From contig JAEYZN010000039.1 of the NCBI GenBank assembly GCA_023428025.1, positions 9,439 through 73,438 on the forward strand: a DNA stretch of 64,000 nt, in the 5' to 3' direction. The translations under genes and the position numbers were made by a program. Below the pieces are notes generated by a model. That model searched no databases and was not told the origin of the DNA. It worked only from the letters and a program-made list of their open reading frames with translations. The stretch is from Bacillota bacterium. GTDB lineage: Bacteria; Bacillota; Clostridia; Christensenellales; SZUA-584. This document shows, piece after piece, positions 2,416 to 41,569 of the stretch. Numbering within the stretch: position 1 is the first letter of the stretch; each line of letters starts with the position of its first letter.

Positions 2416-3564
2416 ATGGAAAAAGTGTACCGGCGTTTGGATTACATGGATAATCTACGCAGCCTGGTCATCATTCTGGTGGTACTGCAGCATCTGGCCG
2501 TGACCTACAGCAGCCTTGGAAGCTGGTATTACATGGACGGCGTCCCATTGTCGTTGGCGGAGACCGCCGTTTTCGGTTATTACCAGTCCTTCGTGCAGGG
2601 CTTTTTTATGGGTTTTCTCTTTCTGCTCTCCGGCTATTTCGTCCGTGCGTCCTATAACAAGAAGGGATTCATGGGCTTCGTCTGCGAGCGCCTGAAGCGT
2701 CTGGGGATTCCCGCGCTCATTTACATGCTGGTCATCAACCCGTTTATCCTCTATGTGCAGCTCGATCTCAGCTGGGTGCGGCCCAAGCCGTCGTTCTTCA
2801 GCTTTTATCTGGATCACCTCGCCAATTTCGATTTTCTGTCCGGCTCCGGCCCTCTCTGGTTCGCTATAGCGCTGCTCGTGTTCTCTGTCATCTACGCGCT
2901 TGTCCGGCTCATAAAAGGCCCGGGCAAAAAGGCGGCTGAATTGAAGCGGCCGCTTTACAGCTCTAAAAACGTGGTTTTCCTCATTTTTATCATCGCGCTG
3001 CTCGCATTCCTGACCAGGACCGTTCAGCCTGTCGGCACCAGTGTGATGAACATGCAGCTTTGTTATTTCGCCCAGTATATCTGCCTGTTTGCCGTGGGCA
3101 TCGTATTGGGCAAACACAAAGGCTTCGACACGATCGGCTACCGCTCCGGAATCAGATGGCTGCTCTCGGCCACGCCTCCGGCTTTTCTCTGCTGGGCGGT
3201 TATCATGCTTTTCGGCGGTGCGCTCGAGGGAGACTTAAGCTATAACGGCGGCTTTACCTGGCAAAGCGCGGCGTTTGCGCTCTGGGAATCCTTTATCGCT
3301 GTTGCGGTATCCGTCGGGCTTGTCGTCCTCTTCCGCGAGAAGCTAAACCGGAAAAACAAGCTGGCTGCGGTGCTTGCCGATAATTCCTTTGCGGTCTATA
3401 TGTTTCACGCGCCGGTCATCATTGCGGCGGCTCAGCTTGCCGCGCCGCTGACGCTGCCCCCCATCGTCAAGTTCCTGCTGCTTGCCGTGATATGCGTTCC
3501 GTTATGCTTCGCTGTCTGCCAGCTCATCATAAGAAAAATACCGCTGCTGAATAAGGTGTTATAG
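2416..3564 (+). CDS. Acyltransferase family 3 (OafA/OpgC-like) integral membrane protein
   Basis: RLDYMDNLRSLVIILVVLQH signature N-terminus, about 10 hydrophobic segments, AAGGGG RBS. Confidence 0.8.
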   Translation: MEKVYRRLDYMDNLRSLVIILVVLQHLAVTYSSLGSWYYMDGVPLSLAETAVFGYYQSFVQGFFMGFLFLLSGYFVRASYNKKGFMGFVCERLKRLGIPALIYMLVINPFILYVQLDLSWVRPKPSFFSFYLDHLANFDFLSGSGPLWFAIALLVFSVIYALVRLIKGPGKKAAELKRPLYSSKNVVFLIFIIALLAFLTRTVQPVGTSVMNMQLCYFAQYICLFAVGIVLGKHKGFDTIGYRSGIRWLLSATPPAFLCWAVIMLFGGALEGDLSYNGGFTWQSAAFALWESFIAVAVSVGLVVLFREKLNRKNKLAAVLADNSFAVYMFHAPVIIAAAQLAAPLTLPPIVKFLLLAVICVPLCFAVCQLIIRKIPLLNKVL

Positions 3565-5504: not shown

Positions 5505-6220
5505 AGGCGTTTTTTATCCAGCTCTGGGTACAACTGAAAATGGACTTGAGGGACAAGGGCACTCTGATGGTCTATTACCTCGTACCGCTGGTGTTTTATC
5601 TGGTCATGGGGAGCATCATGAAAGCCATCGCCATGGACGCGCAAATCCCTCTGATTCTATCCATCACGATTTTTGCCCTGTCGATGTCGGCATTTTTGGG
5701 GATGCCGCAAAATCTGGTCAAAGCGCGTGAGCAGGGTATTCTGGAGGCGTACCGTGCCGCGGGCGTTCCGGCGTGGAGCTTGCCGCTGGCAACGATTATC
5801 CTGTCGACGCTGCACATGATGTTTGTGGCGATTGTCATCTTCGTTACCGCACCGTACCTGTTCGGTGCGGCGCTGCCGGAAAATATTCCGATACACTTTT
5901 TGGCTGTTCTGCTGGTTGCGCTTTGCTCGGAGGGCTTGGGCGCGCTGCTGGCCTGTCTGGTCAAAAAGCAGAACACCATGACATTGGCGGCGCAATGCCT
6001 GTTCTTGCCAAGCATCATGTTTTCGGGGATCATGTTTCCGGCACAGCTGCTGCCAAAACCCATGCAATGGCTGGGCATGGCCTTGCCCGCCACGCAGGGC
6101 GTGCGCCTGCTTGACGGCAGCGCGCTTGCCGCAGCGCCGCTTGCCATACTCTGCGGGCTGACCATTGCGTCCTTTGCGGCGTCAGCGGTCCTGTTCAAAC
6201 GGATTGGTATACGAAGGTAA
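5501..6220 (+). CDS. ABC-2 type transporter permease
   Basis: Six hydrophobic segments. ATGA overlap with the ATPase gene. Confidence 0.8.
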   Translation: MKAFFIQLWVQLKMDLRDKGTLMVYYLVPLVFYLVMGSIMKAIAMDAQIPLILSITIFALSMSAFLGMPQNLVKAREQGILEAYRAAGVPAWSLPLATIILSTLHMMFVAIVIFVTAPYLFGAALPENIPIHFLAVLLVALCSEGLGALLACLVKKQNTMTLAAQCLFLPSIMFSGIMFPAQLLPKPMQWLGMALPATQGVRLLDGSALAAAPLAILCGLTIASFAASAVLFKRIGIRR

Positions 6221-6638
6221 GACGTCTTTGAGCGATCGGAATGCCCGCAGCAAATTGGACAGGCTTTTCGGAGAGCCCCTTTTCTACAGGCATTTCCGCA
6301 TCCCTTCTCATAACCGCGCCCTGAACGGCTGCATCTATTTTGGCTACACGTTAAACAAACGGGCACTACACACCTGCTTTGCCTGATGCGGCTTTGCCGT
6401 AATGGTGCGGCTGTAACGGCAAAAGCAACAACAGCGGTCAAGGTTTTGGCCTTGGCTGCTGTAGATTGAAGCTGCAAATAAGCCGGCTGATAAGCATATC
6501 CTCTCATTTCTCTGCGCCCTTTTGCCATGCCATCATGTCCATGCACAGCAAATCCCAAGGTATTCAAAACACAAGCTTTGTACGGTAACCAGAGTTCTCT
6601 GATTTTTCCGGCAGTGTCGAATAATTTGTTTTTTTGTC

Positions 6639-6700
6639 TTGACAAGGCCGGATTACTGATGTAATCTACGGTTATATTATATAGGCTACATATGTAATCT
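6639..6700 (+). promoter_or_regulatory. blaI-like promoter with BlaI/CopY-type TACA/TGTA operators
   Basis: TTGACA 6639-6644, 17 nt, TAATCT 6662-6667. Dyad ATTAC-N4-GTAAT (6652-6665). TACATATGTA (6687-6696) lies inside CTACA...TGTAG. TGTAATCT occurs twice. Confidence 0.55.
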
Positions 6701-6716
6701 GTAGAGGGGGAATGTT

Positions 6717-7097
6717 ATGAATAAGCTGGCTGAAAGAATAGCAGATTCCGAACTCGAGGTCATGCGGGTGTTGTGGGATGCGAAGACCGCCTTGCCTGTT
6801 GCCGAGATTCGCAAAGAAATCTGTAAAAAGACCGGCTGGGAGGGTTCCACCGCCAAGACTTTGCTGTATCGCCTGCAAAGCAAGGGCGTGGTGGCGCAGG
6901 AAAGGCGGGAGGTGTACTACTACTCTCCCCGTGTCACGGAGGATGAATATAACGAGTATACGACGCAGACGCTGATCGATAAGCTCTATAAGGGCAGCGC
7001 GAAAAATCTGATCGCCTCGTTTATATCATCCAAAAAACTGAGCGACGACGATATCACCGAATTACAAAATATATTACGGGGCGGCAAGAAAAGATGA
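6717..7097 (+). CDS. BlaI/MecI/CopY-family transcriptional repressor
   Basis: SELEVMRVLW...TAKTLLYRLQSKGVV winged helix, 126 aa, AGAGGGGGA RBS. Confidence 0.9.
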   Translation: MNKLAERIADSELEVMRVLWDAKTALPVAEIRKEICKKTGWEGSTAKTLLYRLQSKGVVAQERREVYYYSPRVTEDEYNEYTTQTLIDKLYKGSAKNLIASFISSKKLSDDDITELQNILRGGKKR

Positions 7098-8932
7098 ACA
7101 ACACGATCCTGACCATTCTTTCGCTCAGCGCGTCCGGCTCAGTTCTGGCCCTGATCCTCCTTGCACTGCGGCCGCTTTTGAAAAACAAGGTCTCCAAAAC
7201 GTTCCAGTATTATATCTGGCTGCTGGTGCTGCTGCGGCTGGCGTTGCCGCTATCCTTTGACGGCAGCATCATGAGCCAGATCATTCCTCAAACGGGCATG
7301 ACACCGGTGCCGGTGGTTTCAACCCCTGACGATGGCAATGGAATAACGCAGGGGGATAATACACCGCAGGGCAATGAACCAAATACCCCGCCGGAGGTCG
7401 CGCCATCCGGCATGGCGCCGAATGGCAACGCTGCACCGAACCCGAACCTCCCGGCAGCGTCCGAACCCACGCGGTTCAACATTTGGCAGTTTGCTTTGGA
7501 CCATCTGACCGCCATATGGCTGCTGGGCGCGGCGCTGTATCTCGGCTGGTTTGTCACCGCTTATCTGCGTTTCAGCCGAAAACTCAGAAAAACCAGCATT
7601 CGGCCCCACCCCCAGGACATGGAGGTCTATGCCAAGCTGCGCAGCCATACGCGCGTGCGGCTGGTCTGCAATCCGTATATCAATACCCCCATGCTGATCG
7701 GGTTCTTATCCCCGTGCATCGTGATCCCGCAGCTGGCGTACGCCGAAAACGGAATGAAATCGGATCTCCGGCATATCCTGCGGCATGAGCTGACGCATTA
7801 CCGCCGCCGCGACCTGCTGTATAAATGGTTTGTCGTATTGGTCAGCGCTTTGCACTGGTTCAATCCGCTGATGGTCCTGGTGCGGCGGGAGGTCAGCCGG
7901 ACTTGCGAGCTGTCGTGTGACGAGGCGGTGATACGTTCCCTGGATGCCGCTGAGCGGCAGGATTACGGAGAGACCCTGCTCGCCATTGCGTCAAGCAAAC
8001 GGCTCCCCACCGGGGTCGTAACGACGACAATGTGTGAAGGAAAACGTGAATTGAAAGAAAGGTTGGAAAGCATCATGACATATAAAAGCAAAAGCGTATT
8101 CATGGTGGCCGTTTCTCTCATTTTGGCACTGTTGCTTGCCGGGTGCAGCGTGGCGCTTGGCGCGGCAAGCGTCACTCAAATGCCCGATGAAGCTTCTCTA
8201 TCCCCCACGGCAACGGACACGTCCGGTGTTTCAACAAGTCCTGATGTTGAAGCGTCCCCATCCCCCGCGGCAACGGATACTCCCGATGTTTCGACGATAC
8301 CCGGAGTTGAAGCGTCCCAGTCCCCCACAGCCACGGACGCCTCCGGTGCTCCGACAAGGCCTTCTTCTCCCAATAGTGCGGCGTTGGAAGCATATAATGC
8401 GGTATTACAGAATCAGGCTGAGTTTTTCAGCACCGATGTCAATAAAAATTTAAATATAAGCCAATTAAACCAAGCAATCAGTTCGGAAGTTGTTACCGTA
8501 GATGTGGCAAGCTTTGCCGTTATCGATATAGGACATGGAGGGGTGCCGGCAGTTATTCTATCGCTTAACGTGAATGGTAACGGTTATGGCGTTGAAGTTT
8601 TAAGCTATCAGGATGGTATCGTTTATGGTTACACTTTTTCCGGAAGACAGTTTGGCGATCTGAGGACTGACGGAACATTTGTAGCTTCCGGCGGTGCGGC
8701 TGACGTTGGCATCTGTACCATTGCTTTTGACAAAAACACATACTTGATCGATAAATTTACTTATAGCGAATCAAATACCGATTCAGAAAACAATATGAGC
8801 GTGTCTTACTTTGTTAATCATCAAAGCGCCACGGAAGATGAGTATAATGCGGCTTTCAGCCAATGGCAGAAGATACCGTATGTAACGTGGTACGATTTTA
8901 CTGCTGCTAATATGGGTACAAAGTTGTCTTAG
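7094..8932 (+). CDS. BlaR1-like M56 sensor metalloprotease fused to TM/linker/unknown C-terminal ectodomain
   Basis: HELTHYRRRD zinc motif, N-terminal TM helices, ATGA overlap with blaI. The C-terminal part is paralogous to 9030-9932. Confidence 0.9.
   Translation: MNNTILTILSLSASGSVLALILLALRPLLKNKVSKTFQYYIWLLVLLRLALPLSFDGSIMSQIIPQTGMTPVPVVSTPDDGNGITQGDNTPQGNEPNTPPEVAPSGMAPNGNAAPNPNLPAASEPTRFNIWQFALDHLTAIWLLGAALYLGWFVTAYLRFSRKLRKTSIRPHPQDMEVYAKLRSHTRVRLVCNPYINTPMLIGFLSPCIVIPQLAYAENGMKSDLRHILRHELTHYRRRDLLYKWFVVLVSALHWFNPLMVLVRREVSRTCELSCDEAVIRSLDAAERQDYGETLLAIASSKRLPTGVVTTTMCEGKRELKERLESIMTYKSKSVFMVAVSLILALLLAGCSVALGAASVTQMPDEASLSPTATDTSGVSTSPDVEASPSPAATDTPDVSTIPGVEASQSPTATDASGAPTRPSSPNSAALEAYNAVLQNQAEFFSTDVNKNLNISQLNQAISSEVVTVDVASFAVIDIGHGGVPAVILSLNVNGNGYGVEVLSYQDGIVYGYTFSGRQFGDLRTDGTFVASGGAADVGICTIAFDKNTYLIDKFTYSESNTDSENNMSVSYFVNHQSATEDEYNAAFSQWQKIPYVTWYDFTAANMGTKLS
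8037..8447 (+). repeat. Segmental duplication, copy 1 (inside the BlaR1-like gene)
   Basis: Aligns with 9027-9440 over about 410 bp. Most positions are identical by eye, with one 3-nt indel. Confidence 0.9.
8189..8368 (+). repeat. Three tandem 60-bp (20-aa) Pro/Thr/Ser-rich linker repeats
   Basis: EASLSPTATDTSGVSTSPDV / EASPSPAATDTPDVSTIPGV / EASQSPTATDASGAPTRPSS. Confidence 0.9.
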
Positions 8933-9026
8933 ATTTAGATTGCATCAATGCCTGTGAATTGGCCTTTGGAATGAATGTTTATAAACTGTTGCTGCTGAAT
9001 TTCTATCTATAAGTTTGGTTATTGCA

Positions 9027-9440
9027 ACAATGTGTGAAGGAAAACGCGAATTGAAAGAAAGGTTGGAAAGTATCATGACATATAAAAGCAGAAGCGTATT
9101 CATGGTTGCCGTATCTCTTGTTTTGGCGCTGTTGCTTGCCGGCTGCAGCGTGGCGCTTGGCGCGGTAAACGCGACAAATCAAATACCCGATGAAGCTTCC
9201 GAATCCCCCGCAGCCACGGACACCCCCAGTGTTTCGACAAGTTCTGAGGTTGAAGCGTCCCCGTCCCCCACGGCGACGGACACGCCCAGCGTGACAACAA
9301 GTCCTGACGTTGAAGCGTCCCCGTCTCCCGCAGCAGCGGACACCTCCGGTATTGCGACAAGGCCTTCTTCTGCCAATAGTCCGGTATTGGCAGCATACAA
9401 TGCGGTATTGCAGAATCAGGCCGAATTCTTCAGTACGGAT
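9027..9440 (+). repeat. Segmental duplication, copy 2 (5' end of the lipoprotein paralogue)
   Basis: See 8037-8447. Homology starts inside sequence that is coding in the BlaR1-like gene. Confidence 0.9.
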
Positions 9441-9932
9441 AATAAGAAAAAATTAAAATTGAACGACTTTTTGACCAACAAAGAGATTTATGAAACGACC
9501 TTCAGTGTCACGCGCTTTACGGTGCTCGACATGGACGGCGACAACGTGCCTGAGGTTGTGCTTGAATTGTCGGTCGCGAATGAACCACAGTTCTATGAAG
9601 TCCTGCATTATATGGACGGAGCCGTTAATGGATACCTTATTCCATACAGGGGGTTAACAGAGCTAAAAGCGAATGGAACATTCTTTTTTTCAGGCGGTGC
9701 AGCAGATAGCGGAGTCGGAAAATTGAAATTCGAGTCAACGGCCTATACAACCGACAGGTTGGGGTACAGTCAGTCCAGTCAGGGCGATACCACCTTGACC
9801 ATATCATACTTCATCAATAATCAATCCGCTACAAAGGAAGCCTTTGATTCCTTCATGAATGGACAATCCGGGAAGAAAGGTGCGGACTGGTACGAGTTTT
9901 CTCAAGCGAATATCGAAGCTGAGCTTTCTTAA
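9030..9932 (+). CDS. Lipoprotein paralogous to the C-terminal sensor region of the BlaR1-like protein
   Basis: MTYKSRSVFMVAVSLVLALLLAGC signal peptide plus lipobox. ATG at 9030 or 9075. Same 20-aa repeats (9192-9371) and a homologous C-terminal domain. Confidence 0.75.
   Translation: MCEGKRELKERLESIMTYKSRSVFMVAVSLVLALLLAGCSVALGAVNATNQIPDEASESPAATDTPSVSTSSEVEASPSPTATDTPSVTTSPDVEASPSPAAADTSGIATRPSSANSPVLAAYNAVLQNQAEFFSTDNKKKLKLNDFLTNKEIYETTFSVTRFTVLDMDGDNVPEVVLELSVANEPQFYEVLHYMDGAVNGYLIPYRGLTELKANGTFFFSGGAADSGVGKLKFESTAYTTDRLGYSQSSQGDTTLTISYFINNQSATKEAFDSFMNGQSGKKGADWYEFSQANIEAELS
9192..9371 (+). repeat. Three tandem 60-bp Pro/Thr/Ser-rich linker repeats (paralogue)
   Basis: EASESPAATDTPSVSTSSEV / EASPSPTATDTPSVTTSPDV / EASPSPAAADTSGIATRPSS. 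Confidence 0.9.
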
Positions 9933-9973
9933 AATCCATAACAGCCCAGCATGATTCTAAAACAACAGTCAAA

Positions 9974-10008
9974 AGCGGCTTGCTTCAAAAGCAGGCTGCT
10001 TTTATATT
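9974..10008 (+). terminator. Rho-independent terminator after the lipoprotein gene
   Basis: AGCGGCTTGC / GCAGGCTGCT stem (two G-U pairs) followed by TTTTATATT. Confidence 0.5.
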
Positions 10009-10090
10009 ACGTATACACCATAACCGCGCAAGGCGTGCTATAATAGACAGGCAGCAAGCCAAGCATCATGTGACCAACAGGAGACCCTCA

Positions 10091-11077
10091 ATGAAGATTT
10101 TTGTCTACAACCTGCGCGAATACGATGAAAAGCCTTACTTCGACCGGTTCTGCGCCGAGCACCATCTGGAATACGCCTACGTATCGAAATACCCGGCTCT
10201 GGAGAACGCCGAACTGGTGCGCGGCTGCGAGGCGGTCAACATCATCACCAGCCCCACCGACGCCGCCCTGCTCCGGCGATGGCATGACCTGGGCGTCAGA
10301 TACATCGCGACCCGCACCATCGGGTTCGAGCATATCGACATCGCGGCGGCGCGCGCGCTGGGCATGCGGGTGGCCAGCATCAGCTACTCGCCGGACAGCG
10401 TCGCCAACTACGCCATCATGCTCATGCTGATGGCCTGCCGCAACATCAGCCATATCATCCAGCGCGCCAAGCTGCAGGACTACACGCTGCGCGGCAAGAT
10501 CGGCCGCGAGCTGTCCCGCAGCACCGTGGGCGTGATCGGCACCGGGCGGATAGGCCGCACCGTCATCGGGCATCTCAGCCGTTTCGGCTGCAAGCTGCTC
10601 GCGTACGACGCTTACCCGGACGAGGCTGTGGCGCAAAACGCCGAGTATGTGCCGCTGGATACGCTGCTCTCCGAAAGCGACATCATCACGCTGCACGCGC
10701 CGCTGAACGACGGCACCCGCCACCTGATCGGCCGGGACGCCGTCGCGAAAATGAAGCCGGGCGTCATCCTCGTGAACACGGCGAGAGGGGCGCTGGTGGA
10801 CACCGCCGCGCTGATCGAGGGGCTGGACAGCCATCATATCGGCTTTGCCGCGCTGGACGTGCTGGAGAACGAGCACGGCCTATATTACTTCAACCGCATG
10901 AACGAGGTGATCGGCAACCACGAGCTCGCGATCCTGAGTTCATACCCCAACGTCATCCTGACGCCCCACACCGCCTTCTACACCGAGGAGGCCGTGTCCA
11001 ACATGGTGGAGAACTCTATTCTGGGGCTGCTCAGCTTTGAGCAGGGCGGGCCCAGCCCGTTTGAGGTGCAGGCCTGA
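10091..11077 (+). CDS. D-isomer-specific 2-hydroxyacid dehydrogenase (D-lactate dehydrogenase-like)
   Basis: MKIFVYNLREYDE..., NAD fold GVIGTGRIGRTV, family-typical C-terminal LTPHTAFYT. TGcTATAAT-type box near 10040. Confidence 0.9.
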   Translation: MKIFVYNLREYDEKPYFDRFCAEHHLEYAYVSKYPALENAELVRGCEAVNIITSPTDAALLRRWHDLGVRYIATRTIGFEHIDIAAARALGMRVASISYSPDSVANYAIMLMLMACRNISHIIQRAKLQDYTLRGKIGRELSRSTVGVIGTGRIGRTVIGHLSRFGCKLLAYDAYPDEAVAQNAEYVPLDTLLSESDIITLHAPLNDGTRHLIGRDAVAKMKPGVILVNTARGALVDTAALIEGLDSHHIGFAALDVLENEHGLYYFNRMNEVIGNHELAILSSYPNVILTPHTAFYTEEAVSNMVENSILGLLSFEQGGPSPFEVQA

Positions 11078-36630: not shown

Positions 36631-36828
36631 ATGAAAAACAGGCTGGAGGAGCTGCGCAAACAGCGCGGCATCCGTCAGGAGGAGCTGGCCGCCGCGCTCA
36701 GCGTGTCGCGCCAGACCATCGGGTCTCTGGAAAACGGGCGGTACAACCCGTCCATCAAGCTGGCGCTGAAGATCGCGCGGTATTTCGGGCTGCCCGTGGA
36801 GCAGATATTCATCGACGAGGAGGAATGA
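36631..36828 (+). CDS. XRE-family (YozG-like) HTH regulator
   Basis: LRKQRGIRQEELAAALSVSRQTIGSLENGRYNPS. Confidence 0.9.
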   Translation: MKNRLEELRKQRGIRQEELAAALSVSRQTIGSLENGRYNPSIKLALKIARYFGLPVEQIFIDEEE

Positions 36829-36831
36829 ACT

Positions 36832-37248
36832 ATGCTGAAAAAAACATCATTTTATATCGCCGTCCTGATCACAGGCGTTGTGCTGGCGGCTGTGAGCATT
36901 CTGTTCACCGGGGAGTCCATGAAGGCGGTGGGAGGCGTGCTGATTGGCGTGGGCGCGGGGCTCGCCGGCATGAGCATCGCCTATCTGGTCATGAAGCGCT
37001 ATATGAAAAAACATCCGGACATCGCCCGGCAGAACGAGATCGAGCAGGGCGACGAGCGCAGCGAGATGATACGCACCAAGGCGCGGGCCGCGGCGGGCTC
37101 GGTGGTCCAGTGGCTGGTGATCGCGCTGGCGGGCGTATGGATACTGACGGATGCGCCGCTGTGGCAGACGCTGGTCACGGTGGGCGTGTATGCCGCTTAC
37201 AATGTGCTGCTGCTCGTCATGACGGTGCGTTATCAGAGGCAGATGTGA
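36832..37248 (+). CDS. Four-TM membrane protein partnered with the XRE regulator
   Basis: Starts 4 nt after the regulator stop. Hydrophobic segments flank a charged loop. Confidence 0.6.
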   Translation: MLKKTSFYIAVLITGVVLAAVSILFTGESMKAVGGVLIGVGAGLAGMSIAYLVMKRYMKKHPDIARQNEIEQGDERSEMIRTKARAAAGSVVQWLVIALAGVWILTDAPLWQTLVTVGVYAAYNVLLLVMTVRYQRQM

Positions 37249-37502: not shown

Positions 37503-37679
37503 ACGCATCAAGCTCCTTTACGCGTCCCAGTTTATCAAAGCGCCGCCGCCGTGTCCGCGCAATCCCTGCACGAAAATGCGCGGCTTTTCCCATTATACAT
37601 GAAACGCAGGATAATGGGGAATATTGCCTACATACAGGCTTTTATGGTATAATCAAGCAAAAACAAGGAGGGACAAGCC

Positions 37680-37988
37680 ATGCCTGATTTCGGAACATCC
37701 TTTTCCGGGCTCGCGAAGGACCGTAAGCTGACCCATGCCGAGCTGATCCGCGCCATCCGCTTCATGATCGCCGCGGAATACGAGGCCATCCAGCTTTACA
37801 TGCAGCTGGCCGAATCCACCGACAACCAGCTCGCCATCGCGGTGCTGGAGGACATCGCCAACGAAGAGCGCGTGCACGCCGGCGAGTTCCTGCGCCTTTT
37901 GAAAGAGCTGGCTCCCGACGAGGAGAAGTTCTACGACGAGGGCTCGGAAGAGGTGGAAGAGGAGCTGGAGGAGCTGGGCCTGCGGTAA
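37680..37988 (+). CDS. Encapsulated-ferritin (EncFtn)-like small ferritin-fold protein
   Basis: LIRAIRFMIAAEYEAIQLY...LEDIANEERVHAGEFLRLL (E...ExxH di-iron half-site). Strong AAGGAGGG RBS. Confidence 0.7.
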   Translation: MPDFGTSFSGLAKDRKLTHAELIRAIRFMIAAEYEAIQLYMQLAESTDNQLAIAVLEDIANEERVHAGEFLRLLKELAPDEEKFYDEGSEEVEEELEELGLR

Positions 37989-38190: not shown

Positions 38191-38958
38191 ATGAGAACAG
38201 CCAGTCTGGTACTGGGCCTTGTTGGTGGCATACTCGCCATCATCATCTCTATCTTTGTACTCGTTGGCGCGGCGTCTCTGAGCTATCTGAATTCCTATGG
38301 TTTCAGCGACGACATGAACGACATCCTGAACCAGTATTCCGATGAATTCTCAGATGGATTAGCGGAAGGCTTTGACAACGGTAATTTCAACTTTGATTAC
38401 AATTACGACTTCGACTACGATTACGATTACGACATCGACCTTGGCGATTATGCGGACTTTGGCCTGAGGGCTGCCGCCACATGGCTGACGGTGTCCGGCG
38501 TGCTCGGCATCATCGGCGGTATCCTCGGCACCATCGGCGGCGCCCTTGCCAAGAAAAAGAACGTGCTGGCGGGCGTGTTCATGATCATCGCCTGCGTGCT
38601 GTCCAGCATGACGGGCTGGGGCATCATTTCCGGTATCGCGCTGCTGGTGGGCGGCATCCTCGCGCTGGTGAAAGAGAAGAACCCGCAGGCCGCAGCCGCA
38701 GCCGCCGGATATCCGTATCCGCCGTACCCGCCGTATCAGCAGGCTCCGCAATACAATCCGTATCAGCCGCCGCCGCAGGCACCCCCGTACAACGCGTATC
38801 CGCAGTATCCGCAGACGCCTCCTGCTCCCCCGGCTCCGCCGCAGGAACCCGTTGCGCCGCAGGAACCCGTTGCGGCGCAGGAACCCGTTGCCCCGCAGGA
38901 ACCCGTTGCCCCGCAGGAACCCGTTGCCCCGCAGGACACAGATGAACCCAAAGAATAA
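38191..38958 (+). CDS. Membrane protein (DUF4064-like) with D/Y-rich loop and Pro-rich repetitive tail
   Basis: Four TM helices, NFDYNYDFDYDYDYDIDLGDY, C-terminal (QEPVAP)5. AAGGAGGG RBS. Confidence 0.7.
   Translation: MRTASLVLGLVGGILAIIISIFVLVGAASLSYLNSYGFSDDMNDILNQYSDEFSDGLAEGFDNGNFNFDYNYDFDYDYDYDIDLGDYADFGLRAAATWLTVSGVLGIIGGILGTIGGALAKKKNVLAGVFMIIACVLSSMTGWGIISGIALLVGGILALVKEKNPQAAAAAAGYPYPPYPPYQQAPQYNPYQPPPQAPPYNAYPQYPQTPPAPPAPPQEPVAPQEPVAAQEPVAPQEPVAPQEPVAPQDTDEPKE
38839..38937 (+). repeat. 18-bp tandem repeat, 5.5 copies (ccgcaggaacccgttgcc)
   Basis: Read directly. Encodes PQEPVA units. Confidence 0.95.
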
Positions 38959-39106
38959 CACCACGATATGAAAGGCCGCAGCACATGCGGCCTTTTTTGC
39001 GTCCATTGGTAAGCCTGTCACCGTCAGGCAAATTATACTTGATATCTCCCCGCATTGCGGCTACTATGGAGGTTGCTGTGATACTACGAAAAGAGATGTG
39101 TGTGCA

Positions 39107-39799
39107 ATGTTCCTTGGCGTTATCGTGAATTTCCTGGCGGTGTTGGCGGGCAGCGCGGTCGGCCTTTTCTTCAAAAACAAGCTCAAAGCCCGTTATCAGA
39201 AGGCGCTGACGGACGTCATCGCGCTGGGCGTGGTGGGCGTGGGCATCCTCTACGCCATCAAATCACAGAATATACTGGTGATGATACTCAGCCTCATCGT
39301 CGGTACGCTGCTGGGCACGCTGATCCGCATCGACGACCGGCTGGAGAGCCTGGGCGGCAAGCTGCAAAGCCGCCTCAAACAGGCGGGCGGTTCGTTCTCC
39401 GAAGGCTTCGCGGGCGCGTCCATCCTGTTCTGCGTGGGGTCCATGGCCATCATGGGCAGCATGAGCAGCGCGCTCTCAGGCGACCACGGCATCCTGTTCA
39501 CCAAGTCCATCATGGACGGCGTCACGTCCATCTTCCTCGCGTCCACCATGGGCGTGGGCGTGCTGTTCTCCGCGTTTCCGGTGCTGATCTATCAGGGGCT
39601 GCTCACGTTCGCCTTCTCGCTGTTCGCGGGCGGGCTGGACAGCGCCGTCGTGAACGAGATCTCCGCGGTGGGCGGCATCATCCTTTTCGGCATCGCCGTC
39701 AACATGTTGGGCCTCAAAAAGGTGAAAACGGGCGACATGGCGCTCTCGCTGTTCCTGCCCATCGGCCTGCTGCCGCTGCTCAAGCTGCTCGGGCTGTAA
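39107..39799 (+). CDS. DUF554 (YdfK/YqgA-like) membrane protein
   Basis: MFLGVIVNFLAVLAGSAVGLFFKNKL... is the family-typical N-terminus. Confidence 0.85.
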   Translation: MFLGVIVNFLAVLAGSAVGLFFKNKLKARYQKALTDVIALGVVGVGILYAIKSQNILVMILSLIVGTLLGTLIRIDDRLESLGGKLQSRLKQAGGSFSEGFAGASILFCVGSMAIMGSMSSALSGDHGILFTKSIMDGVTSIFLASTMGVGVLFSAFPVLIYQGLLTFAFSLFAGGLDSAVVNEISAVGGIILFGIAVNMLGLKKVKTGDMALSLFLPIGLLPLLKLLGL

Positions 39800-39813: not shown

Positions 39814-39842
39814 GGCTCTCTCGTTGAAGAGGGCCTTTTTTG
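39814..39842 (+). terminator. Rho-independent terminator
   Basis: GGCTCTCT/AGAGGGCC stem followed by T7. Confidence 0.7.
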
Positions 39843-39905
39843 TACTATACAAAAAGCAGCCTTTGCGGCATTGCGACCGAGCATTTAACGCCCATAGCCC
39901 CGCCC

Positions 39906-40187
39906 GTTTGGGCTTATTTCCGGCAGTTGTCCGGCAAAGAGGTTTACGCGGCTATGGCGGTACAGGCGACCGCGGAAGTCCAATTCGTGATTAACTGGCG
40001 GGACGACGTTACAACGGCGCATATTGTGCGCTACAAGGGAATTTTGTACGATATTACCCGCGTGGACGTATTCGAGGGTTACAAAGCCGCTATCAGCCTG
40101 TATTGTAAGTTGTCGGGGGAAAAGTTTAACGCCCACCCCGACGCTTTACAAGTATGGATAGGCTGCAACAGCTTATCCTTTAGTTAG
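39906..40187 (+). pseudogene. Phage head-closure (head-tail adaptor) protein fragment lacking its N-terminus
   Basis: VWAYFRQLSGKEVYAAMAVQATAEVQFVINWRDDVTTAHIVRYKGILYDITRVD fits the family pattern. The nominal ORF start lies inside the preceding terminator. Confidence 0.55.
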
Positions 40188-40820
40188 CGCATCATAGCGT
40201 TTTTTGGACGTTTTGTATTCTTTGAAATAATGCTCCCAAATAGCCATTTTTTCATCATAGCTATTTGCTTCTTTTTGTAAAACCTCTATGAACGCTAACA
40301 CCTGTTTATGATAAAACCATTCATATGTATGCTTTGCTTTAGCAGGCGTTATACGCAATTCTTTTGCGATTGCTATATATGACGCTTTTTCAACCTCCCG
40401 CATTTCGATAACACGGGCAATCGTTTCTTTGCTCAGTTTGGGCTTAAATGGTGGCATACTCCTGACAAATTGTATCGGCATACCCGGTTCCCCGCCCCTG
40501 TATTCATCCAAAATGCTTTTATACTTCTTTTCCAAATATGCACAGGCATATGACCAGCCTTGATAGCATTCATAAGCATTATCATAGACTTTTCTGATTT
40601 GTGAACTGCCTTCATATCCAAGCACTACCGCAATATGATTGATGTATAAGCGTATTTGCTTAACCTTCATTTTGTTATATATTTGCGCAACCCTTGCAAC
40701 CGATATTTCGCACTCTTTTGCGATATCGGTAAATGTGTTGCCGTGTTGGTCGCGAAGCAGCATAACCTCATACGCACGCTCGTCCTGTTTTAATATGCTG
40801 TATGGAATGTCTTTCAGCAT
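40173..40820 (-). CDS. Low-G+C protein with two sigma-70 region-4-like HTH modules (phage-type regulator?)
   Basis: NTFTDIAKECEISVARVAQIYNK and ASYIAIAKELRITPAKAKHTYEW. Confidence 0.55.
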   Translation of the reverse strand: MLKDIPYSILKQDERAYEVMLLRDQHGNTFTDIAKECEISVARVAQIYNKMKVKQIRLYINHIAVVLGYEGSSQIRKVYDNAYECYQGWSYACAYLEKKYKSILDEYRGGEPGMPIQFVRSMPPFKPKLSKETIARVIEMREVEKASYIAIAKELRITPAKAKHTYEWFYHKQVLAFIEVLQKEANSYDEKMAIWEHYFKEYKTSKKRYDALTKG

Positions 40821-40870
40821 ACGGCCCGTCCCGTCCTTTCGTTGTTATTTGATACGTCGATTTTCACTGT

Positions 40871-40947
40871 TAACGGTACAACAACAGTTAAATAAAGATT
40901 ATCAGAAATAAGCAACATAAAATACGGTAACGGTACAATAACAGTTA
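40871..40947. repeat. Two 20-bp direct repeats (TAACGGTACAAYAACAGTTA) in a divergent intergenic region
   Basis: 40871-40890 and 40928-40947 differ at one position. Each carries internal dyad symmetry (CTGTT/AACAG; AACGGT/ACCGTT). Confidence 0.8.
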
Positions 40948-40982
40948 TTTAACCGTTGCATATATTTGTTATTTGTTGTTAA

Positions 40983-41204
40983 TATCGAGGACGATTATTT
41001 AGAAAAAAAGCGTTATATCGCAAAACGGGAAATTTCTTTAATGTTTCACTTGACTATCTTGCAGGCTTATCTGATGTGAAGCAGCAAATTAGAGAAAGTG
41101 ATTTATCACCAAATGAGTTGGAGCATTTACATACATACCGACAGTTAAGCGATAACGACAGAGAAAAGATAAAAGCATATACTGACGGTTTGCAAAGAAA
41201 ATAA
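40983..41204 (+). pseudogene. C-terminal fragment of an XRE/CI-like repressor (no start codon)
   Basis: ...FFNVSLDYLAGLSDVKQQ..., the end of an XRE HTH domain. The frame opens right after a TAA and contains no ATG/GTG. Confidence 0.5.
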
Positions 41205-41569
41205 ATCTCATTTCTGTAAAAACAATCCGGTATGTTTTATAATTTTGACAAGCAATATATTGTATCGTTGAGTATCATTTTACATATTTAAGCGACAGAT
41301 AAGCGACAAAATGACAGCAAAGCACGGAAAAAACCTTGATTTTACGGGGTTTATTCCGTGCTTTATATAGTCCTTCTCGGAAAACAGCCTTACTTCTCTT
41401 AATTGAAAAGGATTATCTCCTCCGCTTTCATTATAGCACAAGAAGATTTTTATTATCAGTCTTATATTTGGCATCCATTGAGTTTATTCTAATGAAAAAA
41501 CAATATCGACGCACCAGACTGCTGTCAGGACATTTCCAATAAACGCCGTGAATTCAGGGAGGATCATGA

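Follow-up and report, generated by a model that had tools for sequence, protein, structure and literature searches.

A predicted EncFtn-fold half-ferritin from a Clostridia-class MAG belongs to a widespread clade found without targeting peptide or family-1 encapsulin shell

The 102-aa protein encoded at 37680..37988 (+ strand, stop included) of the 64,000-nucleotide stretch of DNA analysed here (the window) is strongly supported, by sequence comparison, as a non-encapsulated relative of the encapsulated ferritins (EncFtn). Our favoured reading is that this member of a shell-independent EncFtn-fold clade probably acts as a soluble ring ferroxidase in oxygen-stress defence and iron detoxification. 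The working rule of the field is that an EncFtn oxidises iron but needs an encapsulin shell to be useful. The clade breaks this rule, as it combines the same fold and the same half of the active site with neither a docking peptide nor a shell. We do not regard the window protein as encapsulin cargo because it lacks the linker and the targeting peptide, and because no family-1 shell was found in the genomes searched.

The reading frame is intact, with the letters and the tail (EEVEEELEELGLR) that an earlier note on this DNA had quoted. It is preceded by a ribosome-binding site, AAGGAGGG (GGAGG), read directly from the sequence at 37665..37672 (+), 7-8 nt 5' of the ATG. Upstream lies a promoter-like site, TTGCCT-18 nt-TATAAT with a TG before the -10 (extended -10), at 37624..37653 (+); it is a consensus match only, with 10 of 12 positions matched, and the upstream region holds four promoter-like sites against 0.6 expected in shuffles. 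The neighbours are those named in the earlier note: an XRE-type HTH gene (36631..36828) and a DUF2178 membrane protein gene (36832..37248) upstream, and a membrane protein gene without a Pfam family (38191..38958, +) downstream, followed by a gene for a DUF554 protein (39098..39799). No HK97-fold gene occurs among these window neighbours, in agreement with its remark that no shell gene lies nearby, and the neighbours are uninformative on function. The downstream membrane protein contains a loop rich in D and Y, and its Pro-rich C-terminus closes with repeated QEPVAP units. Beyond the DUF554 gene, an isolated 115-aa gene (39840..40187, +) carries a phage head-tail joining/head completion domain (PF05521) and is probably a prophage remnant, because no PF05065 capsid gene was found anywhere in the genome. 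A low-GC island at 40200..41400 (34-39% versus about 56-64% around it), with a 215-aa ORF (40173..40820, -) that gives faint sigma-70 region-4-like matches only, looks like foreign DNA beside the phage remnant.

From profile matches and a modelled structure, the window protein is predicted to be a half-ferritin of the EncFtn fold. A phmmer search of the PDB returned the EncFtn domain of Pyrococcus furiosus (Pfu; 5n5e, E 1e-12; 2e0z, E 1.5e-11) and M. xanthus EncC (7s8t, E 6e-12). The alignments reproduce the Pfu strings that the earlier note had given, so the likeness it proposed stands. The AF2 monomer prediction (pLDDT 82) places helices at residues 19-45, 50-77 and 81-98. When this model was compared with the PDB by Foldseek, 49 of the top 50 matches were EncFtn-type half-ferritins (5n5e, 7s8t, 7s5k/7s5c, 3k6c, 5da5, 5n5f and others), the lone exception being 2fzf, a P. 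furiosus hypothetical protein; the best matches were Pfu (TM 0.70-0.74), EncC, EncB, NE0167, R. rubrum and H. ochraceum.

The putative active-site residues lie on the first two helices. The helix-1 segment that runs from the first ferroxidase ligand to a conserved Tyr (37776..37799, +) aligns with AELDAINLY of Pfu EncFtn and contains the codons for E33 (37776-37778, +) and Y40 (37797-37799, +). On helix 2, E63-R-V-H66 (37866..37877, +), the Glu-x-x-His half of an inter-subunit di-iron site, aligns with EKAH in Pfu and EREH in EncC. All four residues, E33, Y40, E63 and H66, align with the ferroxidase ligands of Pfu and EncC and are invariant across the 25 homologs of alignment A1. The Glu / Glu-x-x-His inter-subunit half-site that had been suggested earlier is supported by sequence, profile and predicted fold, with E33, E63 and H66 falling on the Pfu ligands.

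Profile scores also bear on whether the protein could belong to another ferritin-like family. Rubrerythrin (PF02915) was the sole Pfam model passed, at 32 bits and over profile positions 7-71 of 137, and the Pfam search of the window protein gave no match to a RUBY_RBDX or Rubredoxin domain. With only half a Rubrerythrin domain, one helix pair and no rubredoxin domain, there is no complete intrasubunit site, and the di-iron site is thus predicted to be unable to form within one chain. Among the EncFtn-related models, the protein scored 18 bits with Pfam EncFtn-like PF22277 (cut-off 27), 78.6 bits with TIGR04535 (cut-off 125) and 96.7 bits with NCBIfam EncB_fam NF058679 (cut-off 90). The last match covers profile positions 1-100 of 117 only, and the NF058679 cut-off therefore appears to be reached through the fold region only.

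We propose the following model, drawn from solved relatives (PMC5012862, 10.1101/431494, PMC11202242). Each chain would form a two-helix hairpin followed by a short acidic third helix (residues 81-98 in the AF2 secondary structure, EEKFYDEGSEEVEEELEE, 37920..37973, +) and would contribute half a di-iron site (E33; E63-x-x-H66; Y40 nearby). Since each chain has only this half-site, two chains would have to pair for a ferroxidase centre to exist; iron-mediated pairing would build it, and five such dimers would form an open ring, by analogy with every solved relative. In the cytoplasm, this ring would consume Fe(II) together with O2 or H2O2, limiting Fenton chemistry, and would leave any iron storage to a classical ferritin whose gene lies elsewhere in the genome. 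By themselves, EncFtn rings are reported to oxidise iron into an insoluble precipitate (PMC11202242; 10.1101/431494), so a free ferroxidase looks hazardous unless a partner takes the product. For this insoluble Fe(III), the alternatives are that a partner may accept it, that the acidic third helix may keep it soluble (residues 79-102 include 12 acidic and 2 basic residues, and the whole-protein pI is 4.3), or that the ring may turn over as a peroxidase or oxidase with an external reductant.

The gene neighbourhoods of the clade are consistent with a role in oxygen stress. Across 80 loci with 6-kb flanks there is no conserved neighbour: apart from the gene itself, no family occurs in more than 14 loci, and that top one is a generic ABC ATPase. 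The clade gene is mostly monocistronic and usually solitary, with informative neighbours wanting at 64 of the 80 loci. The other 16 have Pfam-confirmed anaerobe oxidative-stress or iron genes within 6 kb, encoding desulfoferrodoxin, rubrerythrin, thiol peroxidase, flavodiiron protein, NADH-oxidase-type reductase, ferritin, a rubrerythrin-like protein or a flavin reductase-rubredoxin fusion; five of these 16 loci come from one order, Pirellulales, and are not independent. As such genes number one or few per genome, chance would be expected to give well under one locus per family, by a rough estimate. In Pirellulales the EncFtn-like gene heads a co-directional run of oxidative-stress genes. Four loci from Pirellulales/Planctomycetales MAGs (L033, L038, L093 and L065, at about 6000-11000) have this arrangement, with genes for rubrerythrin, thiol peroxidase, flavodiiron protein, desulfoferrodoxin, ferritin, a rubrerythrin-like protein and a flavin reductase-rubredoxin fusion in the run. 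The genome of the window protein itself encodes, elsewhere, a ferritin (contig C39), a Dfx-Rbr pair (contig C31), three flavodiiron proteins and a rubredoxin. PerR/Fur-type 7-1-7 boxes close to the consensus were seen upstream of a few clade genes (one mismatch at -40 in L043; two mismatches each in L023 and L037) and none was found upstream of the window gene; the shift relative to coding-region controls is explicable by AT-rich intergenic DNA.

The same neighbours could be read differently. The ring might work mainly as a peroxidase or O2 reductase in the manner of rubrerythrin, with rubredoxin or a flavin reductase supplying electrons, or as an iron buffer or chaperone that delivers iron to ferritin or Fe-S assembly. 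Rubrerythrin being the only Pfam model passed would suit this, as would the rubredoxin-fused flavin reductase, rubrerythrin, FDP and ferritin genes at the informative loci, and the extreme surface-wide conservation of the protein suggests conserved protein partners. However, the protein has no rubredoxin domain, no partner gene is conserved across the loci, and all characterised relatives are ferroxidases (PMC5012862, PMC11202242). We consider these other activities unlikely, and retain the soluble ring ferroxidase as the reading to be carried forward.

Whether such a ring would be free or enclosed was addressed in 300 genomes of the same class, which were searched with the window protein and with the family-1 encapsulin model PF04454. 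The class homologs split into two tiers, at 43-52% (tier B) versus 76-84% identity (tier A, which holds the window gene). In tier B (G082, G221, G112, G195, G257, G059, G061, G205, G192 and G138), all 10 of the 10 genomes have a family-1 encapsulin gene immediately downstream of the homolog. The tier B proteins, of 114-126 aa, align with the window protein over the whole length of the latter, have a helix 3 ending ...EEV.EM.E[ED]LGI, and continue into a linker and a T[VI]GSL[LIK] targeting peptide, about 15-35 residues in all. Tier A proteins (G237, G066, G155, G273, G263, G068, G261, G287, G140 and a partial copy in G013) have about 100-104 aa, one of them with a longer basic tail. The two tiers also differ in how they match NF058679. 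Tier B proteins reach 139-170 bits over positions 1-117 of 117 (16-117 in the N-terminally shorter L110 protein), whereas tier A proteins reach 97-100 bits over positions 1-98 to 1-100 of 117 only.

This comparison changes the interpretation of the C-terminus. What the earlier note had called an acidic tail is mostly the third helix (81-98), with the final ELGLR extending to residue 102. In the encapsulated paralogs the homologous stretch is EGQEEVREMLEELGI, and the linker follows it. ELGLR aligns with the E[ED]LGI that closes helix 3 in those paralogs, and the tails of 120 close homologs stop 1-4 variable residues (KK, GK, GL, GLL, NK...) after EEVEEEIEKL. A targeting peptide of the linker plus T[VI]GSL[LIK] type is absent from the window protein, which ends at NF058679 position 100 of 117. 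Because the shell-less tier stops exactly where the linker of the encapsulated tier starts, ELGLR is best read from the alignment as the end of helix 3 and not as a degenerate targeting motif; the loose resemblance to D-L-G-I-R-K that had been noticed is not upheld, the last 1-4 residues being free to vary.

The protein might still be encapsulin cargo if a family-1 or other shell were encoded in the unassembled 19% of the genome and if loading took place without a canonical targeting peptide. The source MAG (2.9 Mb, 46 contigs) is estimated to be 81% complete, the EncB_fam cut-off is reached, and it has been speculated that short FLPs without a targeting peptide, such as NE0167, are possibly encapsulated (PMC11202242). 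Searches with PF04454 and NF041155 found no family-1 encapsulin in this genome (NF041155 gave only a 13-bit chance match), nor did PF05065 reveal a phage-capsid-type shell, and tblastn with five Clostridial shell proteins gave no match in this genome or in the 80 loci with their 6-kb flanks. At 81% completeness, absence from this genome is not proven, and we speak of a shell not found in the genomes searched. The comparison with other genomes argues against cargo. PF04454 had no match in any of the 10 tier A genomes of the class, nine of which have a completeness of 91-100% (that of G013, where the copy is partial, is 83%), or in 10 further tier A genomes from other phyla. The latter comprise single-contig genomes of Syntrophomonadaceae, Sporobacter, Syntrophales, Desulforhopalus, Anaerolineaceae and Sphaerochaetaceae, a near-complete Dehalococcoidia MAG, Desulfosporosinus acididurans, Desulfoferrobacter suflitae and a Pirellulales MAG. 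Many of these 20 clade genomes are 96-100% complete or single-contig, and 0 of 80 tier A loci have a family-1 shell within 6 kb, whereas the encapsulated paralogs keep strict gene adjacency and a targeting peptide, both of which are missing in the clade. We judge a hidden cargo role very unlikely. Of the two explanations that the earlier note had offered for a missing shell, a non-encapsulated EncFtn relative is the one favoured by the two-tier split and by these counts.

Its other explanation, a shell encoded elsewhere, is true only in a trivial sense, since the genome, in which no family-1 shell was found, does hold a family-2A (SrpI-like) shell (PF19307, 338.7 bits, E 1.7e-101). This complete gene lies on contig C12 (27184-28170; locus L004 8185..9171, +) and does not travel with the present protein family. 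Downstream is a class-V aminotransferase of the cysteine desulfurase type (L004, about 9050..10525, +), whose Aminotran_5 domain begins at about residue 112, after a ~110-aa N-terminal extension; DUF6034 and flagellin genes surround the pair. The locus looks like a standard desulfurase nanocompartment, a system described in PMC8346489, in a Clostridia-class MAG. Although the shell itself is bona fide, it is extremely improbable that the window protein is its secondary cargo or partner. The C12 shell is adjoined by its own canonical desulfurase cargo, the genes are on different contigs, and family-2 cargo is loaded via N-terminal disordered domains, with no FLP cargo described (PMC8346489). We consider the family-2A shell unrelated because nine other genomes with the high-identity clade have no PF19307 match, as is also the case for G247. 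On the grounds of co-occurrence and of its desulfurase cargo, we reject it as the missing shell.

A maximum-likelihood tree of 48 sequences, including encapsulin-adjacent and solved EncFtn proteins, supports the separation of the two groups. All 31 tier A rows fall on one side of a branch with 93/64 support, as one clade apart from the encapsulin-adjacent Clostridial clade, and this split is present in 96% of bootstrap trees. In the same tree, tail-less and shell-less proteins from G247 and from the pair G092/G152 nest inside the encapsulated clade, so tail and shell have been lost more than once. The G247 protein (L104, contig C20, 3161..3460, -) is a 99-aa member of the encapsulated-type subclade without targeting peptide or shell and is an independent case of shell loss; its gene sits between a 141-aa ferritin-like/rubrerythrin-like gene and a gene for a 160-aa Gln-rich protein. 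The pair (L105 in G092, 2982..3296, -; L106 in G152, 2895..3164, +) makes up a third EncFtn-like subfamily without a shell; its tail is rich in Gln (...QQQQAQNFQQPLQ), and it sits on a long branch inside the encapsulated clade.

The clade is large, and its sequence is tightly constrained. At least 8000 clusters (90% identity) were matched in a protein search, each of them significantly. Members come from more than 15 phyla, archaea included, among them Bacillota, Desulfobacterota, Planctomycetota, Chloroflexota, Spirochaetota, Atribacterota, Omnitrophota, Ignavibacteria, Calditrichota, Acidobacteriota, Actinomycetota and Lentisphaerota, as well as Bathyarchaeota and Methanobacteriota MAGs. Over residues 1-97, 74 tier A genes show zero indels; their amino-acid identity has a median of 82% and a minimum of 68%, and third-codon-position identity is 39%. 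When the genes were compared with the window gene, dS was saturated in 60 of 73 cases, and dN/dS is about 0.06 where defined. High protein identity with saturated dS implies an old likeness kept by purifying selection, and not very recent transfer, and the constraint is stronger than in the encapsulated cousins. The topology within the clade crosses phyla and domains, for example by grouping Bryobacteraceae with Methanobacteriota, which points to past transfers, and MAG mis-binning may lie behind individual cases. Carriage by mobile elements was rejected, as a tblastn search of 72,556 plasmids and 50,697 phage records gave no match. A decaying, functionless remnant of an encapsulin operon after shell loss, for which the derivatives nested in the encapsulated clade (G247; G092/G152) offer a precedent, is scarcely credible for a gene with an intact frame, a ribosome-binding site and a promoter-like site, in a monophyletic and indel-free clade that spans more than 15 phyla and has a dN/dS of about 0.06.

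A separate search of a representative library gave 1466 clusters at E<=0.001, many of them represented by frameshifted or fused singletons, and this set was kept out of the tree. Some representatives (P0164, P0179, P0198, P0213, P0238 and others) have at least 340-420 aa, with an EncFtn-like start and long unrelated C-terminal regions, some of which are Cys-rich or end in what resembles a zinc ribbon. Flp-encapsulin fusions may be among these proteins, alongside unassigned architectures.

Returning to the shell-less clade as a whole, we tentatively suggest, with the odds somewhat against us, that it may represent, in place of a leftover cargo, a functionally separate, near-universal free di-iron ring of anaerobes, held fixed by selection in both bacteria and archaea, which would scavenge O2 or H2O2 with Fe(II) or pass iron to a conserved partner. 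If so, the 'encapsulated' ferritins would be a derived, shell-dependent branch of an older free-living half-ferritin. This touches on a proposal by He et al. 2016 (PMC5012862), in which two-helix proteins of such kind resemble the ancestor of four-helix ferritins.

Our results have a practical side. NCBI naming rules will call the clade proteins 'encapsulin nanocompartment cargo', because the NF058679 cut-off is exceeded by a few bits, and for this clade the label is misleading. The tiers can be told apart by a simple rule: true cargo has 114-126 aa, a T[VI]GSL tail and an adjacent shell, and free forms have about 101 aa and end shortly after EEVEEEIEKL. What the present analysis adds is this clean rule for the tiers, the NF058679 annotation trap, and a picture of how broad and how constrained the clade is. 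A protein of only 102 residues makes it directly testable whether anaerobes have here an abundant, so far uncharacterised part of their defence against oxygen and iron.

Several known systems can be set beside the window protein. Rubrerythrin/erythrin domains (PF02915) share the di-iron carboxylate helix-pair motif, and public records label the window protein 'rubrerythrin'; unlike rubrerythrin, it consists of one helix pair, three helices in 102 aa, and not of a four-helix bundle. EncFtn/Flp cargo with a targeting peptide (M. xanthus EncC, 7s8t, and EncB; R. rubrum, 5da5; the Clostridial operons) shares the predicted fold and the half-site. The Clostridial encapsulin-adjacent proteins are 43-52% identical over residues 1-100 of the window protein, but they have their own linker and T[VI]GSL peptide and adjoin a shell in 10 of 10 cases, and the window protein is without both. 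Rru-type EncFtn has an HxxxE/E64 secondary-site signature (PMC11202242), which the window protein lacks: at these positions, mapped by eye, it has D58 and V65.

Proteins of this general kind have been named before. The ferritin tree of He et al. 2016 (PMC5012862) includes a 'Non-EncFtn' group 'lacking the encapsulin sequence', and a 2024 review (PMC11202242) distinguishes 's-FLPs' without a targeting peptide, typified by NE0167 (3k6c), which forms an EncFtn-like decamer (PMC11202242). In concept both correspond to the window protein, being two-helix proteins of EncFtn type that lack a targeting peptide and are not associated with an encapsulin; NE0167, however, is only 18-21% identical to it and so belongs to a different subfamily. 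In the literature we found no solved structure, assay or genetics for the present clade, and only He et al. 2016 was found to mention 'Non-EncFtn'. In Asgard isolates, according to a 2025 preprint that cites the EncFtn review, a 'ferritin(-like)' protein is expressed at a very high level; it would be at most a candidate member of the clade. The kind is known by name but uncharacterised, and the window gene is a further member.

The closest known system is the Pfu EncFtn domain (5n5e / 2e0z). On the tree, where it sits on a long branch and its placement is unsure, no solved protein may be closer to the shell-less clade. Although this domain is fused covalently to an HK97-fold shell, and the window protein is free-standing with no family-1 shell found, it gives the best match in both sequence and fold (E 1e-12, 35% identity, TM 0.70-0.74), and the two agree in starting with an extended segment, in having a pair of long helices followed by a short third one, and in the E / ExxH / Tyr half-site.
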